A DNA stretch of 64,000 nt from a virus (taxonomy: Duplodnaviria; Caudoviricetes): IMG/VR virus record IMGVR_UViG_3300033076_001137, positions 9,406 to 73,405 of that record. One strand, given 5' to 3'. How positions within the stretch are numbered: the first letter of the stretch is position 1; each line of letters opens with the position of its first letter. Of the stretch, positions 8,985-19,332 are shown piece after piece. Below the pieces are notes generated by a model. The model searched no databases and was not told where the DNA came from. It saw only the letters and a program-made list of their open reading frames with translations. Position numbers and translations under genes: made by a program.

Positions 8985-9410
8985 TTAATTATCACGCTCT
9001 GAGGATGATTGTCTAACCTTTATACCCGCGCTCGACAGAAGATCGAGACCTGATGTGTCACGATACTTCTCAAGATAGATCACCTCGTCGATTCGAGCAT
9101 TGATGATAGCTTTTGCGCACATGCGACATGGACTGAGACTTACGTACATCTTCTTACGTTTTGGACTGTTAAAATCTAGCTTTATCAAAGCGTTCACCTC
9201 AGCGTGAATAAAACCGGACTCCCCCGGCGCCTCGGACTCTCTGCAATTCGAACCCCCGGTGTGATCACCGTTGTAGCCCAAAGATAGAAGCTGCGTGTTA
9301 TCATCGGTCACGATGATCGCTGCGACCTTGAAGGATGGATCGGAGGAACGTCTAGCGATAGTATTAACGACGTCTCCCCAAACTTGATCCCAAGTTGGAC
9401 GATCATTCAT
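8985..9410 (-). CDS. dCMP deaminase (ComEB/T4 cd-like)
   Basis: Zn motifs HAEVNA and SPCRMC; LSLGYNG. Confidence 0.9.
   Translation of the reverse strand: MNDRPTWDQVWGDVVNTIARRSSDPSFKVAAIIVTDDNTQLLSLGYNGDHTGGSNCRESEAPGESGFIHAEVNALIKLDFNSPKRKKMYVSLSPCRMCAKAIINARIDEVIYLEKYRDTSGLDLLSSAGIKVRQSSSERDN
8986..8992 (-). promoter_or_regulatory. ATAnTTA putative late promoter (ATAATTA)
   Basis: Exact motif 26 nt upstream of the 8960 start, overlapping the dCMP deaminase stop. Confidence 0.6.
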
Positions 9411-13751: not shown

Positions 13752-14807
13752 TTAACCTCGCTTTGCGTGTTGTTCGATCATATCAATCTTATGCTCGGGA
13801 CTAAAATCTACAACCTTCCGGAGAGCCTCTTCCTGGCGAGCGATAATATCAACTCGCTCAGCGACGGTCGTCTGGGAAAGTCGAGTCACTGCTCGTACGA
13901 CGTCCTCGGGATCATTGACAAGAAACTCTCCAAGCCCTACGGGTCGAGCGTGAACGTATTCATTAGGAATGAGCGATACGACACCTGCCTGGATCGCCTC
14001 GGTGAAGCGCATGGTGATGTTGCCGTACGGTGTGTAATCATCACGTGTGATGTGCGTCACGGCAATCGAGTTGTTGATGATTCCGAAGATCTCCTTGTAC
14101 GCGAGACGATGTCCGAAGGCAACATGTGGATTCTCGCGGAGAAGGACGCTCGGATCCCTGCGCTCAGGGCTTCTCTCCAACCAGTTGCCCCAGACCTTTG
14201 TCTGAATTCCGCGCTCTCGAAGAGCGCTGCTTGGCTGCGAATAGTACTTCTTAAATTGTGGATCACGATCGTAGTTGTTACCAACGTATGTGTAGTTGTA
14301 CGAGTACTCAGCCGGCTTGAAGAGTCGACGTGCAGAGGATGCCCACGGCATAGAAATACGCGAACGCGTCTGCTCTCGTGGATTGATGCATGCATCAGCG
14401 AGCTGAGCGTTTGGCCACCGTTGTTCCTCCTCGGGTGTCATCTTCAGATCGCCATCGTGAATGATGATGGGAACTCCCTTCTCGTGATAGTAATCAAGGA
14501 GAGCACACTGGCGTCGATAATCAGGTTCGGTCGCTCGATCACCACCGAGAGTAGAATCATTCTTCCAAGTTGGCCAACGCCACTCAACGAAAAGAACGTC
14601 GCCATCAGGAAATCCGGTGTCATCGTACTGAACGCCCGGATAAGGATCATCATCACGACGCTGCTGAACCTGGATCACCGTATGTCCACGGCGTTGCATC
14701 TCATCCACAAGATCAACTCGACCTCCTCGATAGTGATCTGGTGTTGCGGAGACAGTCTGCTTTTCGAAAGGGGTCACGAAGCCCCAGAAAGAGTATAGAA
14801 TTCGCAT
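13752..14807 (-). CDS. GT-B DNA glycosyltransferase, T4 beta-glucosyltransferase-like
   Basis: 351 aa; C-terminal domain YVGN...VWGN...AFGHRL...NSIAVTHI...DY...ITMRFTEAIQAGVVSLI parallels the recalled T4 BGT pattern (FFGN...SQAIAALI...NY...ITLRVWE). Confidence 0.7.
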   Translation of the reverse strand: MRILYSFWGFVTPFEKQTVSATPDHYRGGRVDLVDEMQRRGHTVIQVQQRRDDDPYPGVQYDDTGFPDGDVLFVEWRWPTWKNDSTLGGDRATEPDYRRQCALLDYYHEKGVPIIIHDGDLKMTPEEEQRWPNAQLADACINPREQTRSRISMPWASSARRLFKPAEYSYNYTYVGNNYDRDPQFKKYYSQPSSALRERGIQTKVWGNWLERSPERRDPSVLLRENPHVAFGHRLAYKEIFGIINNSIAVTHITRDDYTPYGNITMRFTEAIQAGVVSLIPNEYVHARPVGLGEFLVNDPEDVVRAVTRLSQTTVAERVDIIARQEEALRKVVDFSPEHKIDMIEQHAKRG

Positions 14808-14815
14808 GATTTACC

Positions 14816-17800
14816 TCACATAACCTTGATTTTCTTACCTTTTGTCGACAACCCGAAGTCAGAACGATCAACCTCGGCAACGCATAGGGTGTATGGTTCG
14901 AATCCAATCTTACCATCCCAATCCCACATGAACATCTTTTCCGTATTTCCGGCCTCACCCATCACCTGAAGCATCAAGTAGGGCTTTCCATTCTTTGTCT
15001 TCTTCTCGACCGAGCTCACGATGACAAACCAGTAGATGTCAAGTCTCTCCCAACTGTCGATGGAGTAAACCTCCTTGTCTTTGAACTTTTGACGAAGCTC
15101 AGGAGACACGAGAGAGAGTGGATCCATCTTACCAGAAAGTTCGATCTGCATAAGTGCCATCTCGCGACGGGTCCATTCGGGCATACCCTCAGTCTCGACT
15201 ATGAGCTCTCGGAACTTCTTAATTCCACGCTGCGGATCTTTCTTGGCCCACTTCTTGATATCCTCGGCATTTTCGACAAGAACGTGGTGCATCTGCTTCC
15301 ACGAAGAGAACTGCCTATCCTTTCCGACAACTTTCATCGACTCGAAAGCGTTAGCCTTGATAAGAGCCTCGAGGGCTCGACGGTTGAATTTCGATGGACG
15401 CCACTGACCGTCCTCCTTCCACAGCATCTCCTCGATGCTTCGGTACGGACGACATGTCACGATCTCCTCGATCGCCGTCTCGCCAACGCCCTTAATCGTG
15501 TTGAACGATGGAATAAGCAGCTTGCGCTCCGAATCAACGGACCACTGGTTCGTGGAGAGATTGATATCGACGTTGCCGATTTCGTACCCCATCTTCTTCA
15601 CGTCAGAGATTGCCTGAGATCGATCGTCTGGATTGCCAATCATCGATTCCATGTAAGCGCAGAGCCACTCAGCCTCGTAGTAAGTCAGCAGCCAGGCGCA
15701 GTAGAAAGAGTCGATAGCGTAGGCCAGAGCGTGTGAGAGGTTGAAGCCGTAACCTGCGAAGAAGAGGATGTCATCCCAGAGCTTCGAAGCGACAGATTCC
15801 TTGATACCGTTGCCGACCGCGCCGTTGACGAAGTTGTCCTTCATCGCCTTCGCTTTCTTCATCGATTCCTCAGGGTTGCCGCCCTGCCGCTTCAGGATGT
15901 TCTTACGTACCTTGTCACACTCGGACTTCGGGAACCCAGCCACCACGTTACAGAGCTGCATGAGCTGCTCTTGGAAGATGATGCACCCGAACGTCGGCTC
16001 GAGAACCTGCTTGATGAGCGGGTGCTTGTAGTCGATATTTCGAGGGTTCGCTTTCGCCTCGAGGTAGAGCTTATCAACCTTTGCTGCAAGAGGACCGGGT
16101 CGGAAAACCGAGGTCAGGGTTGCGATATCGATGATCGATCTGGGCTTCGCGTTCTGGAAGAGACGTTGGGCTCCCTTGCTGGTGAGCTGGAATACACCGG
16201 GAGTTCTGGAAGTTGCCTCGTGGTAGACATTCTCATACACCTTCTGATCATCGAAGTTGATCACGTCAGTTGCCATATGTTGATCGAACCACGTCTTAAC
16301 CTCTTGGAACGTCGGATTCTTGATCCCATGATGACGCTGGAGGATGAGCTCAATCGTTCGATGGATGGTTCGAAGAGTTTCAAGCCCTAGCAGGTCGAAC
16401 TTAACCCAGCCCAACATCTCGAGATGTTTATAGTTCATACCCTCGACCCACGGCGTCTGCTGCTCACCCTTCGCCATGATGAGTGGCATTCGCTCCTGGA
16501 TGCGCTCCGAGATGATGACACCACCAGCATGTCTACCAAGCGCCTTGTTCTGCCGGAAGAGAACCTTGATCGATTCGGAAACCTGTGGGTATCGATCGAT
16601 GAATTCTCGGAAGCTCTGGCAGTGCTCGTAGCTGTCCTCGAAAGTCAGGACGAAGAGGTTCTTGTCATCGCCAACCTTCTTGGTTGCCTCCATGACCTCT
16701 TTCTCGACAGTCTTCAGGGCTGCGTTGACCTCCTCGAGCGGAATATCGTACAGTCGAGAAACATCTCGGATGAGTGTCTTGAGCTTGAAGGTGTTGTAGT
16801 TCGAGATCGGAACGATGTTCTCGCCGCCGAACTTCTCGCGTAGGATCGAGAGGAGCAGGTCGCGGTTCTCAACGTCGGTATCGATGTCAGGCAGACCCTC
16901 ACGGTCGGGCGACAGGAATCGCTCGAAGAGAAGACCGTACTTGATTGGATCAACGTCGGTGATGCCAAGTACGTAGCAGACGAGGGAGCCGGCACCGGAT
17001 CCTCGACCGACGCCGACGAACATCTGCTCCTTCGCGGCAGAGATGATCTCCTTCATCGTGAGGAAGTAGGACGCGAAATCCTTCTGCTTGATGACGTCAA
17101 GCTCGTAACGGGCACGCTCGACGTACTCGGGATTCTTATCGAAACCCTTCGCAGCGAGACCAGCCTCGACCGACTCAACGAGAGCCTCATTCGCGGTCTT
17201 GCCCTTCGGGATGACGTAGCTCGGTAGCTTCACGGATCGATCAGGCTGAACGTCACCGATCTCCTCGTGAGCAAGATGCCAGGTACGCTCGACCGCCTTG
17301 CGAACAAGCTCCTCCTCACCGCGGTAGAAATCATCGGTCCCACGGGAGATCATGAACTCATCCCAGACCTGAGTCGCGTTCTTCGGGTAGAGCTCACACT
17401 TCAGCTGGTCCTTGCTCTTCGGGATCGAATCCGCCGAGAGGTCAGCGTAGTTGAGCCAGCCGAGCTTCTTGTAGATCTCGCGTTCCTTCCAATGCTCCGG
17501 ACGCGCGTAGTGGGAGTCGCAGGTGACAACGAGCTGGTCAGTCATGCCCTGACGCTTGGCGAACTCCATGATCGCTCGATTGACGATGTGCTGGGCTGGC
17601 AGACGGTTGAACTGAAGCTCGAGCATCACGTTCTTACGACCCACCGCCCAGGCAAGGCTGTCGAACGAATTTCCCACACGATTGATAACACGTTCCATGA
17701 TCGAGGGATCATTGAGGAGTCGGCTGTTCAGACTCTCAAAGCTGTGCTCCTGCAGCTCACGGAAGACCTCAAAAGCGAGTGGACCACCGATGCAAGCAGT

Positions 17801-18457
17801 CGAGACGATGAAATTGTCATCCTCCTGCGCCTCCTTAAGCATTGCCAGGTCGACTCGAGGGAACTTGTAGAAACCCTCGGAGTAACCGCGACTCACTAGA
17901 CCGAAGAGGCGCTCAAGACCCTTGCTGTGTCGCGGGAGGACCACGAGGTGGTGACGACGGTTGATCGGGTTGAAGTGCTTCGTGCTCTTCGTCTCGTCCT
18001 CGTTCTCGATAGTGAGAGCCGAAGCGTCGGTATCGATGCCGATCGTCTCATCATTCTCATCGGTGACAGCGATGATGGGAGTCACCACGCTCTCGGGCTT
18101 CTCCTTCGCCTTCGCGTGACTCTTACGATCTCGCTTGAGCTGCTGCCACTCATGATACTCAGCCTGCCAGGCGTTGAGATCAGGGTGGATGTACATCTCA
18201 CAGCCTGGAATGAACTTCAAGTTCTTCCCAGCCTTCTTCAGCTTATCAGCGTGAAGCCACGCGTGACCGAAGCCGTTCATCTGACCGTGATCGGTCAGGC
18301 TCCAACCATCGAGACCGTTCTCAAGACAGAAGTCGATGTGTTCTTGCGGGTAACCAAGTCCGTCGAACGTGGTTACTTAGGAGAATCCGCTGTGCGAGTG
18401 AAGCCCAAAGAAGCGGCTCGGCACTCGCACGGGATTCTCATTTCCTCCGGTGCTCAT
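14816..18457 (-). CDS. dnaE: DNA polymerase III alpha subunit, interrupted by an in-frame TAA in a 9-nt insertion
   Basis: GRGSGAGSL, PDIDTD, GRHAGG, KFDLLGL, IIFQEQ, YGFNLSH and an OB fold. In-frame upstream of the track start (18280): ATG 18457 MSTGGNENPVRVPSRFFGLHSHSGFS*VTTFDGLGYPQEHIDFCLENGLDGWSLTDHGQ. Confidence 0.92.
18371..18379 (-). other. 9-nt stop-containing insertion TAAGTAACC in dnaE (candidate recoding/bypass element)
   Basis: Removing it restores HSHSGFSTFDG, matching the DnaE PHP consensus spacing HxH(S/T)x(Y/F)SxxDG. Confidence 0.8.
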
Positions 18458-19332
18458 GTTGTTTCCCAGTTGATAAGGTTTGCGTACGTTATGTACAATT
18501 CATTATACTCTGGTGCGCCAATCATTTGCACGATTTCAGCCGGATGCTCGTGTCGAAATAAATCTAGCTTTCTACGAGCAGAATCAGTCATGTATCCCTT
18601 GATTTCGTAAAAAATCCCATCGACCTTGAAATCTGGGGTGTAAGTTGTTCCGTCAGAGAGCGTGAAGGATTCTGATTCATATTCGAAATCTTTTCCCTGA
18701 AGCTTCAGGATTCTAGCGAAGTTCGCTTCCCACGTGCTTCTCACGTAGAAACCAAGATCTTCTCTAAAACCTCCACGGCCGCGATGATTTCTTAGTCGTC
18801 CCTCTCTCACTCGCTTCGCAGCAGAAAGACTCATTTTCATTCTAGATTCATCTCCCATCTTCTTACCTCGACGGAGATTTGAAACTCTAGCGCGACCCTC
18901 TTCAGTCTGTGTCCAATGAGTTTTATTTCTCATCTTTCCAGAAGACCATCTTTCTTTCATCAGTTTGGAAAGTTTCTCACGATGTTCGGCGGTGTTCGGA
19001 TCCCATCCATCTTCATAACGTTTTTTCATGGATGCGCTTTTCGCAAGACGTTGAGCTTCGTCTTGAATGTAACCGCCCGTTGCTCGTCGAGTAGACACCA
19101 TGTTCGATTTAATGCAAATCGGACAATTTTTCGAAGTTTGGCGGCGAGTTACGTCGACGAAAGGCTTGAAACATGTTTCGCAATCCTTTTGAACGCCCTC
19201 AGTTTTCACTAAAGTTTCAGCTTTTCTCTGTGATCTTAAAGCATAAGAGCACTCTTTTCTTCCACAAGTCTCACGACTGGATCTCGCGACTTGTGCATCA
19301 ATCCCGCAAATTCGACAAATGATAATTGGCAT
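18454..19332 (-). mobile_element. free-standing putative homing endonuclease (CxxC pairs + NUMOD3-like repeats + PD-(D/E)xK domain)
   Basis: CRIC, CGRKEC, CETC, CPIC; HREKLSKLMK and RGKKMGDESRMKMSLS; RSTWEANFA...YTPDF...YEIKGY; visibly more AT-rich than neighbours. Confidence 0.75.

Follow-up and report, generated by a model that had tools for sequence, protein, structure and literature searches.

A stop-led nine-nucleotide break in a phage dnaE gene: the probable coding gap of a programmed translational bypass on a homing-endonuclease cassette

The subject of this work is a break in dnaE, the gene for the replicative DNA polymerase, of a virus of the Caudoviricetes (IMG/VR record IMGVR_UViG_3300033076_001137). 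The window that was analysed is a stretch of 64,000 nucleotides (nt), positions 9,406 to 73,405 of that record, and it is part of a 73-kb viral contig estimated to hold 22% of the genome. Nine nt that open with a stop codon separate the first 26 codons of dnaE from the rest of the gene. Judged from a comparison with related loci, these 9 nt are probably the coding gap of a programmed translational bypass, carried into dnaE on a mobile homing-endonuclease cassette. In the best reading of the data, the cassette invaded dnaE at the most conserved stretch of the PHP domain, and the bypass is an independent, short counterpart of the one in T4 gene 60 and its mobA element.

The dnaE gene lies on the minus strand, and its ATG (18457-18455) shares an ATGA overlap with the TGA of the upstream open reading frame (ORF). 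The 26 codons of the first segment end in HSHSGFS, which is PHP motif I, and the last of them is TCC (18382-18380). After TCC come TAA (18379-18377), GTA (18376-18374) and ACC (18373-18371), followed by ACG TTC GAC GGA, which encodes TFDG. The frame is open from the proposed landing codon, ACC, to a stop at 14818-14816, and the TAA at 18379-18377 is the sole stop across the 1214 codons of dnaE. A second TAA is formed in the +1 frame across the gap (AAG TAA), as the first-pass annotation of this DNA had pointed out. The second segment matches the Pfam families DNA_pol3_alpha (1.7e-60), finger (4e-34), PHP (1e-16) and HHH_6 (2e-12). DnaE is a complete DNA polymerase III (Pol III) alpha subunit with an active-type PHP domain. 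The metal-ligand motifs that had been described as intact (HSH, FDG, TDHG, GCE, RHH, TAC and CDSH) are all legible in the translation, motif I upstream of the gap. The phage uses the standard genetic code; TAA terminates 18 of the 41 long ORFs, which rules out reassignment of this codon. No tRNA gene was found in the 73-kb record, which comprises the window and a further 9.5 kb.

The break is real. The identical cassette, including TCC TAA GTA ACC ACG, occurs in two more metagenome assemblies (L131 and L132; related loci are referred to by such numbers), and because of this the break is not an assembly slip. The minus-strand reading and these two assemblies bear out the earlier claim of a 9-nt stop-led interruption of dnaE. 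L131 has the same gene order as the window, and just downstream of the gap both assemblies differ from the window by synonymous changes only. A pattern search that allowed 0-14 nt between the flanks found no gap-free allele with the window's flanks. When the region was compared with 50,697 phage records, blastn gave no match and tblastn gave only distant DnaE matches with less than 33% identity, therefore no cultured relative is available.

Relatives were obtained by searching viral contigs with the N-terminal half of DnaE, which gave 44 loci, and more were added through an alignment of the nuclease encoded upstream. In all, 59 distinct dnaE 5' ends were tabulated, window included. Thirty-three of these have no interruption; their reading is HxHxGFS-x-[FMY]DG, always with the same spacing. 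The other 26, the window among them, carry a gap at the same codon boundary, and one further locus, L012, has a gap a few codons earlier. More than 20 metagenomes are represented among the gap-bearing loci (the 26 and L012). With the landing triplet included, the gaps are 5, 7, 9, 10, 11, 12 or 16 nt long, and 39 nt in L012. They always open with a stop codon (TAA, TAG or TGA) directly after the take-off codon (26/26 and L012), and they are 79% A+T as against 50% for the flanks. The two dnaE segments occur in all three frame relations among the gap-bearing loci; several loci have tandem stops (TAG TGA, TAA TAA) and in others both frames, the incoming and the outgoing, contain a stop. Therefore no single readthrough event, +1 frameshift or -1 frameshift can serve all of them.

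The same comparison bears on the protein. The motif HxH...S upstream of the gap is preserved with varying codons in every gap-bearing locus, and just past the gap most of the differences from L131 and L003 are synonymous. This pattern of change indicates that both flanks of the gap are under protein-level selection. The two ORF segments together encode one conserved protein, GFS ending the first and TFDG beginning the second, and in all 33 gap-free relatives GFS-xFDG is contiguous. The first-pass annotation had held that deletion of the 9 nt restores canonical spacing, that the N-terminal piece is still under selection, and that the insert might prove polymorphic among related phages. All three points stand: the spacing after deletion is that of all 33 uninterrupted relatives, and inserts of 5-39 nt, always stop-led, are found in all three frames. 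It had also been asked whether relatives routinely carry three extra sense codons at this position; all 33 gap-free relatives have the canonical spacing.

The codons on either side of the gap are restricted. At the take-off position all 26 gap-bearing loci have a TCN serine codon, whereas the gap-free loci use TCN in 17 cases and AGY in 16 (Fisher p 1.3e-5). Landing can be described by a simple rule: the sequence is scanned forward base by base until a triplet is met that is either TCN or identical to the take-off codon at positions two and three. This rule picks the triplet that restores frame and canonical spacing in 25 of the 26 loci, where success by chance is about 0.11 per lineage. The landing triplet is a TCN serine codon in 17 loci and an ACN codon with a first-position mismatch in 8, window included; the ACN class comprises two TCC>ACC loci, the window and L003, and six TCG>ACG loci. 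In the window the rule selects ACC, with no other triplet after take-off qualifying, and use of ACC restores GFS-TFDG. Take-off at TCC with landing at near-cognate ACC, as proposed in the first-pass annotation, is favoured by the re-pairable, frame-restoring triplets at the same codon in relatives.

A covarying 5' stem-loop, which the first-pass annotation did not register, is the strongest signal in the family. In the window the 5' arm encodes ENPVRV; the 3' arm encodes HSHSGF and extends two bases into the take-off codon, the second of these forming the last pair. The 106-nt fold around the window's gap has a predicted energy of -46.8 kcal/mol (z -5.1). In an ungapped alignment of 11 lineages 86% of the cells are paired, compared with 26-57% for shifted partners; both sides have changed in nine pairs, and none of 500 shuffles reaches the observed covariation. 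Where the PHP motif is an HGH variant, the 5' arm encodes VSM in place of VRV, and in L013 the Phe of the motif is replaced by Arg together with the partner bases. A stem-loop of 55-68 nt that ends 0-3 nt from the end of the take-off codon is found in all 26 gap-bearing loci and in none of the 33 gap-free alleles. For a comparison of the two classes, the 78 nt terminating at the serine codon were folded. The minimum free energy (MFE) is at or below -24.9 kcal/mol in 26/26 gap-bearing loci (mean -31.5) and at or above -24.3 in 33/33 gap-free loci (mean -13.3), a complete separation (Mann-Whitney U=0, p 6e-11). Seven gap-free alleles that adjoin a nuclease gene have no stem-loop, and gap-bearing alleles that have lost the nuclease retain it (L003, L011, L031, and L012 in its own register). 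Taken across the loci, these folds indicate that the 5' stem-loop tracks the gap and not the nuclease. The N-terminal extensions vary by clade (ENPVRVP, ERRYLEKVELDML, SYLKLESVRPP and others), and their conservation, as judged from the alignment, follows RNA pairing and not peptide.

A Shine-Dalgarno-like GGAG core is located 4-12 nt 5' of the stem-loop in 26/26 gap-bearing loci, in varying codon phase, and this conserved GGAG lies 65-75 nt ahead of take-off. A fixed spacing from GGAG to the landing site across the closed stem was considered but is not supported, since a hand count gives 9-23 nt. The 3' stem-loop of the window has a predicted energy of -11.4 kcal/mol and runs into coding sequence, and L003 preserves it through a change on both sides. 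It was rejected as a general signal because only the window and L003 have it; no equivalent was seen in the other ten lineages folded. The first-pass annotation had paired the insert with downstream coding sequence. The 7-bp helix GUAACCA/UGGUUAC is indeed part of the MFE fold, but the inner helix is GUUC/GGAC and not GCGG/CCGC. An Rfam scan of 18000-18800 gave no match. The ATG inside GGAGGAAATG starts a 22-codon ORF in the +1 frame (18375-18442, minus strand) that terminates at the second TAA within the gap; it is shared with L003 and absent from other lineages, and is probably incidental.

The gene upstream of dnaE encodes a free-standing endonuclease. Its N-terminal part has CxxC zinc motifs and its C-terminal part is a T7-endonuclease-I-like PD-(D/E)xK domain. 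It matches Pfam Phage_endo_I with an E value of 3e-6, just below the curated cut-off, PHROG 945 'endonuclease' with 9e-13, and T7 endonuclease I itself (PDB 1m0d) with an E value of 1.4e-5 over residues 198-280. The residues D234, E243 and K245 (PD...ExK) are invariant in the alignment of homologues and present in the window's copy. Homologues are located immediately upstream of dnaE in 30 other loci, and full-length ones are almost always so placed. In the unbiased, DnaE-seeded sample the gap and the nuclease co-occur (counts 7, 4, 2 and 29; Fisher p 3.6e-4). On the DnaE tree the gap requires 15 changes, of which well-supported branches force at least 11. Among phylogenetically independent pairs that differ in the nuclease, the gap differs in the same direction in about 7 of 9 and in the opposite direction in about 0.2 (median p 0.016). 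An association of insert and endonuclease had been raised in the first-pass annotation, and both the sample and the independent pairs agree with it.

The history of the cassette can be read from the window's nearest kin. L001, L002 and L004, whose DnaE is 96% identical to that of the window, are gap-free, and in L002 and L004 a 76-residue ORF directly abuts dnaE, with no nuclease and no gap. Over the 78 nt from start to take-off the window is 97% identical to L003 and 42% identical to L001; just past the gap it is 77-80% identical to L003 and 85-100% identical to L001. This switch in identity places a recombination boundary at the gap. Together, the distribution and the identities indicate that the cassette, made up of the endonuclease gene, a replacement dnaE 5' end and the gap, is mobile, patchy and mosaic.

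Other forms of the nuclease were seen in the survey. At L001:1949-2884 (IMGVR_UViG_3300027754_004885), where DnaE is 96-97% identical to that of the window, there is a nuclease gene whose product is about 80% identical to the window's in residues 31-135, while the nuclease domain is far more divergent. This nuclease has no first zinc motif and has a 15-residue deletion, and the dnaE gene next to it has neither gap nor stem-loop; L001 may represent a cassette in which the gap has been lost and the nuclease is decaying. In L057, L065, L067, L072, L075 and L077 a gap-free dnaE adjoins a full-length nuclease homologue, and the motif serine is AGY in 5 of these 6. In the AGY alleles, immunity may have been gained in another way, through synonymous changes to the target site. 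As a short free-standing gene that is not beside dnaE, the C-terminal nuclease domain is found by itself (YEIKGYM...PTWE) in L047-L051 and L084-L130, and these stand-alone genes form a wider family of small PD-(D/E)xK genes in many viral contigs.

Table 1. Coordinates of the dnaE segments, the proposed bypass signals and the endonuclease gene in the window
Feature	Position	Strand	Remarks
dnaE segment 1	18380..18457	-	ATG + 25 codons; cassette-borne N-terminal extension, then PHP motif I region; RFFGLHSHSGFS
Proposed take-off codon TCC (Ser26)	18380..18382	-	TCN in 26/26 gap-bearing loci
Putative untranslated gap TAA GTA	18374..18379	-	Stop would occupy the A site at take-off
Proposed landing codon ACC	18371..18373	-	Near-cognate; second and third bases match take-off
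dnaE segment 2	14816..18370	-	1184 codons + stop; rest of PHP, Pol III alpha core, fingers, HhH (Pfam)
5' stem-loop	18381..18439	-	59 nt, ~22 bp; fold and covariation
Internal Shine-Dalgarno-like GGAGGA	18443..18448	-	4 nt 5' of the stem-loop
3' stem-loop GUAACCA/UGGUUAC + GUUC/GGAC	18350..18376	-	Begins right after the stop; lineage-specific
Free-standing endonuclease gene	18454..19332	-	292 aa; TGA overlaps dnaE ATG

Variations on the dnaE arrangement were also seen. The gap of L012 (L012:2940-3020, IMGVR_UViG_3300022752_006360) is in the same motif but after HAHS, not after GFS. It consists of TCG, TAA, a perfect 12-bp hairpin with the loop AAUAAA, and the landing triplet TCA, which would make a 39-nt hop, and the 5' stem of this locus includes the start codon and GGAGG. 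This layout is much closer to that of T4 gene 60. L011, a close relative of L012 from the same metagenome, carries the 5-nt type of gap. In both of these loci (L011:3064-4719 and L012:3061-4716) the dnaE frame stops inside an intein-like insertion after FERFLNPHR|C, which points to a dnaE 'fractured' by a split intein, like those reported by Dassa 2009. The gap-bearing loci L038, L039 and L016 likewise end after 515-548 codons. Directly downstream of dnaE in the window, the gene at 13752-14807 (minus strand) has a marginal glycosyltransferase-like Pfam match (Glyco_trans_1_2, 26 bits, cut-off 25) and is kept adjacent to dnaE in L001-L005.

How might the two segments be joined? In the proposed mechanism, the ribosome would read 26 codons until it holds peptidyl-tRNA-Ser on UCC in the P site and faces UAA in the A site. 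Slow decoding of the stop would allow the tRNA to release UCC. The 5' stem-loop, whose 3' arm is the last ~20 translated bases, would then re-zip behind the ribosome and draw the mRNA through by a few bases. Its inner helices, which would be outside the ribosome, may nucleate closure of the outer 8-bp helix, the 3' strand of which would still be in the exit channel. The tRNA would re-pair at the first compatible triplet, ACC, through two of three bases, and decoding would restart at ACG to give a single DnaE chain, ...GFS-TFDG..., with canonical spacing. By hand count, the distance from the closed stem to the landing triplet is 7-10 nt in most loci. The stretch of mRNA from the P site to the exit is of about this length, therefore closure of the stem could set the length of the hop. 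The 5-nt and 16-nt gap classes fit such a stem-set length less well. The DNA of the gap probably also spoils the endonuclease's own target, so that a carrier would be immune while gap-free alleles would be cut and converted.

A more specific proposal can be put forward only tentatively, and the odds seem to be somewhat against it in full. It is that the cassette carries a minimal portable module in which refolding of the stem-loop behind the ribosome powers a hop of 5-16 nt and sets its length, with no force from a nascent peptide or an in-gap hairpin. The internal GGAG might contribute, perhaps by delaying the following ribosome or by serving as an anchor for the closed stem, and landing with a first-position mismatch (TCC>ACC) would be tolerated. 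The family would then be a second, independently evolved natural phage bypass system, and its dozens of natural variants would lay the mechanism open to dissection.

Several points weigh against bypass. Most of the 3' arm of the stem-loop would be inside the ribosome at take-off, and the zipper model is a mechanical inference. The nascent chain is only 26 residues long at that stage and no peptide motif is conserved across clades, unlike T4 gene 60. The landing rule was formulated after the data had been seen, and L013 fits neither landing pattern. ACC is not a serine codon, and landing on it in the window is proposed by analogy with the parallel TCG>ACG class. The gap of the window keeps the frame and contains one in-frame stop, and at this locus readthrough is countered only by analogy with the sister cassettes. 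In a strand-asymmetry count on the stem, helices 1-2 have 14 G.U and 10 A.C cells (p 0.54), and with helix 3 the counts are 22 and 13. These counts do not separate action of the stem as sense RNA from a DNA inverted repeat. Why would an essential replicase rely on an inefficient hop? Such reliance would be costly.

The other explanations have to be set against these points. An unlikely one is that the two pieces are never joined: the 26-residue peptide would be separate or useless, DnaE would be made from an internal start such as the ATG at 18280, the break would be a tolerated scar of the invasion, and the inverted repeat would be a by-product or a signal at the DNA level. Gene callers would indeed choose the 1154-residue ORF from 18280, the G.U and A.C counts (p 0.54) leave room for such a repeat, and since the endonuclease is of the junction-cutting T7 endonuclease I type, a role for the inverted repeat as a DNA cruciform is conceivable. 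However, no lineage has a start codon in the DnaE frame near the gap. The same finding led to the rejection of internal initiation just after the gap, including a split Shine-Dalgarno-hairpin-start arrangement that would use the GGAG. The 30 codons between the gap and the first ATG, which hold the ligand motifs FDG and TDHG, evolve mostly synonymously, and the upstream HxH is retained in every lineage. Moreover, the frame opens exactly at the landing triplet, often right after a stop in that frame, and the stem-loop is maintained by compensatory change in loci that have lost the endonuclease. That the break arose in assembly or sequencing, or that the gene is dead and the phage defective, can hardly be entertained: the identical cassette of the two further assemblies carries independent synonymous differences, gap variants are spread over more than 20 metagenomes, and there is one disruption only in 1214 codons.

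Two explanations would join the segments without a hop, and both had been offered in the first-pass annotation beside a hop. Readthrough at the window locus, in which UAA would occasionally be read as sense to give a DnaE with three extra residues (GFS-x-VT-TFDG), suits an in-frame gap with one in-frame stop, but it is highly improbable. Sister cassettes with the same N-terminal extension, stem-loop and ACN class are out of frame (TCG TA ACG, 5 nt), and other gap-bearing loci have tandem stops, so that readthrough cannot serve these frameshifted and double-stop variants. Extra sense codons at the site are found in no relative, no suppressor tRNA is present in the record, TAA is a normal terminator in this phage, and the extra residues would fall within a metal-binding motif. 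Repair at the RNA level, by excision of a short stretch or editing of the transcript with the flanking hairpins as processing signals and ordinary translation afterwards, is very improbable as well. It could handle a gap of whatever length and frame, the window's gap lies between strong structures that leave only C UAA unpaired, and the gap of L012 is itself a 12-bp hairpin. However, it explains fewer features than bypass, as it gives no reason for a stop after TCN, for the ban on AGY or for a re-pairable triplet at the 3' edge. No system is known in bacteria or phages that takes 5-39 nt out of an mRNA. The locus has no Rfam match, and no RtcB-type ligase is encoded in the 73-kb record, a weak argument as the record is 22% of the genome.

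Programmed bypass in bacteria and phages has so far been represented by one family, T4 gene 60 and its homologues in topoisomerase genes. A literature search for bypass in dnaE or the PHP domain gave nothing beyond the gene 60 family and reviews, most subscription journals being outside the search. If the present reading is correct, there is an independent bypass family in a replicative polymerase, with other codons, another nuclease, much shorter gaps and an upstream stem-loop as the main signal, and selfish nucleases have repeatedly reprogrammed the ribosome in order to enter an invariant motif and leave the host unharmed. The natural series of 5, 7, 9, 10, 11, 12, 16 and 39 nt, with cognate and near-cognate landings, would be a ready-made set of mutants that could be used to probe what drives forward sliding and the choice of the landing site. 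There is also a consequence for annotation, as such dnaE genes are currently called from an internal ATG and lose the first metal-binding motif.

The closest known system is the bypass of T4 gene 60 and its MobA element (Huang 1988 and Bonocora 2011, as cited in bioRxiv 10.1101/2022.08.31.505936). In MobA elements the nuclease ORF overlaps a new N-terminal extension, which is followed by a region of homologous replacement and a gap that ends at the landing codon (bioRxiv 10.1101/2022.08.31.505936, Manning and Atkins). The dnaE family has the same parts: a free-standing endonuclease gene, an overlapping N-terminal extension, a replaced target region and a stop-led gap that would end at a landing codon. 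Both systems have an A+U-rich gap and an insertion that falls within a metal-binding motif of an essential DNA enzyme; both are patchily distributed, with places where the nuclease has been lost but the gap retained, and a slowly decoded stop would be in the A site at take-off (26/26 dnaE loci and L012). In gene 60 one tRNA can read both the take-off and the landing triplet; in the dnaE family this may hold as well, with 17 loci landing on TCN, 8 matching in two of three bases and L013 fitting neither pattern. For T4 mobA and gene 60 it has been proposed that the gap confers immunity while gap-free alleles are cut and converted.

The differences from gene 60 are also considerable. The host gene is dnaE, at PHP motif I, and not a topoisomerase II gene; the survey of 2022 described the gene 60 cassette as unique to topoisomerase genes (bioRxiv 10.1101/2022.08.31.505936). 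The nuclease is a T7 endonuclease I-like PD-(D/E)xK protein and not an HNH protein as MobA is, the codons are for Ser instead of Gly or Asp, some landings would be near-cognate, and the hop would be 5-16 nt instead of 20-50 nt. Except in L012 there is no stem-loop in the gap, and gaps of 2-13 nt cannot hold one. The mini-Shine-Dalgarno sequence is not 6 nt before landing; instead, GGAG is located 5' of the stem-loop. There is no nascent-peptide motif conserved across clades. The 5' stem-loop is conserved and covaries in dnaE, whereas a 5' stem-loop is not conserved in the gene 60 family (bioRxiv 10.1101/2022.08.31.505936); pairing of the exiting mRNA that would drive the ribosome forward has been proposed for gene 60 too (bioRxiv 10.1101/2024.12.09.627546). 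The nuclease does not split dnaE into two ORFs, only the 5' end being replaced, and no sequence homology between the dnaE and gene 60 cassettes was seen.

Short hops have been described in E. coli constructs, where a tRNA skips a few bases past a stop or hungry codon, including a hop in which 9 nt specify one amino acid, and re-pairs whatever the frame (Weiss 1987, O'Connor 1989 and Kane 1992, as cited in bioRxiv 10.1101/2022.08.31.505936). As cited there, these hops are low-level events in artificial or overexpressed genes, whereas in dnaE an essential protein would depend wholly on the hop, which would have its own conserved RNA signals and travel on a mobile element. The 'byp' elements of Magnusiomyces mitochondria, as cited in the same paper, are likewise many short, mobile, A+U-rich coding gaps that ribosomes bypass, with wobble and larger deviations between take-off and landing tolerated. 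In that account they are 27-55 nt GC-cluster hairpin inserts spread across many mitochondrial genes, with no endonuclease; the dnaE family has one fixed site, a shorter gap and a structure that is upstream rather than in the gap. Fractured genes with free-standing Vsr-like or GIY-YIG homing endonucleases have been found in marine phage metagenomes, dnaE included (Dassa 2009, PMC2677866). They share with the present family free-standing nuclease genes of the PD-(D/E)xK type that target conserved sites in phage replication genes. The function of those genes is restored at the protein level by split inteins (PMC2677866); at the dnaE gap site there is no intein, and restoration must occur during or before translation.

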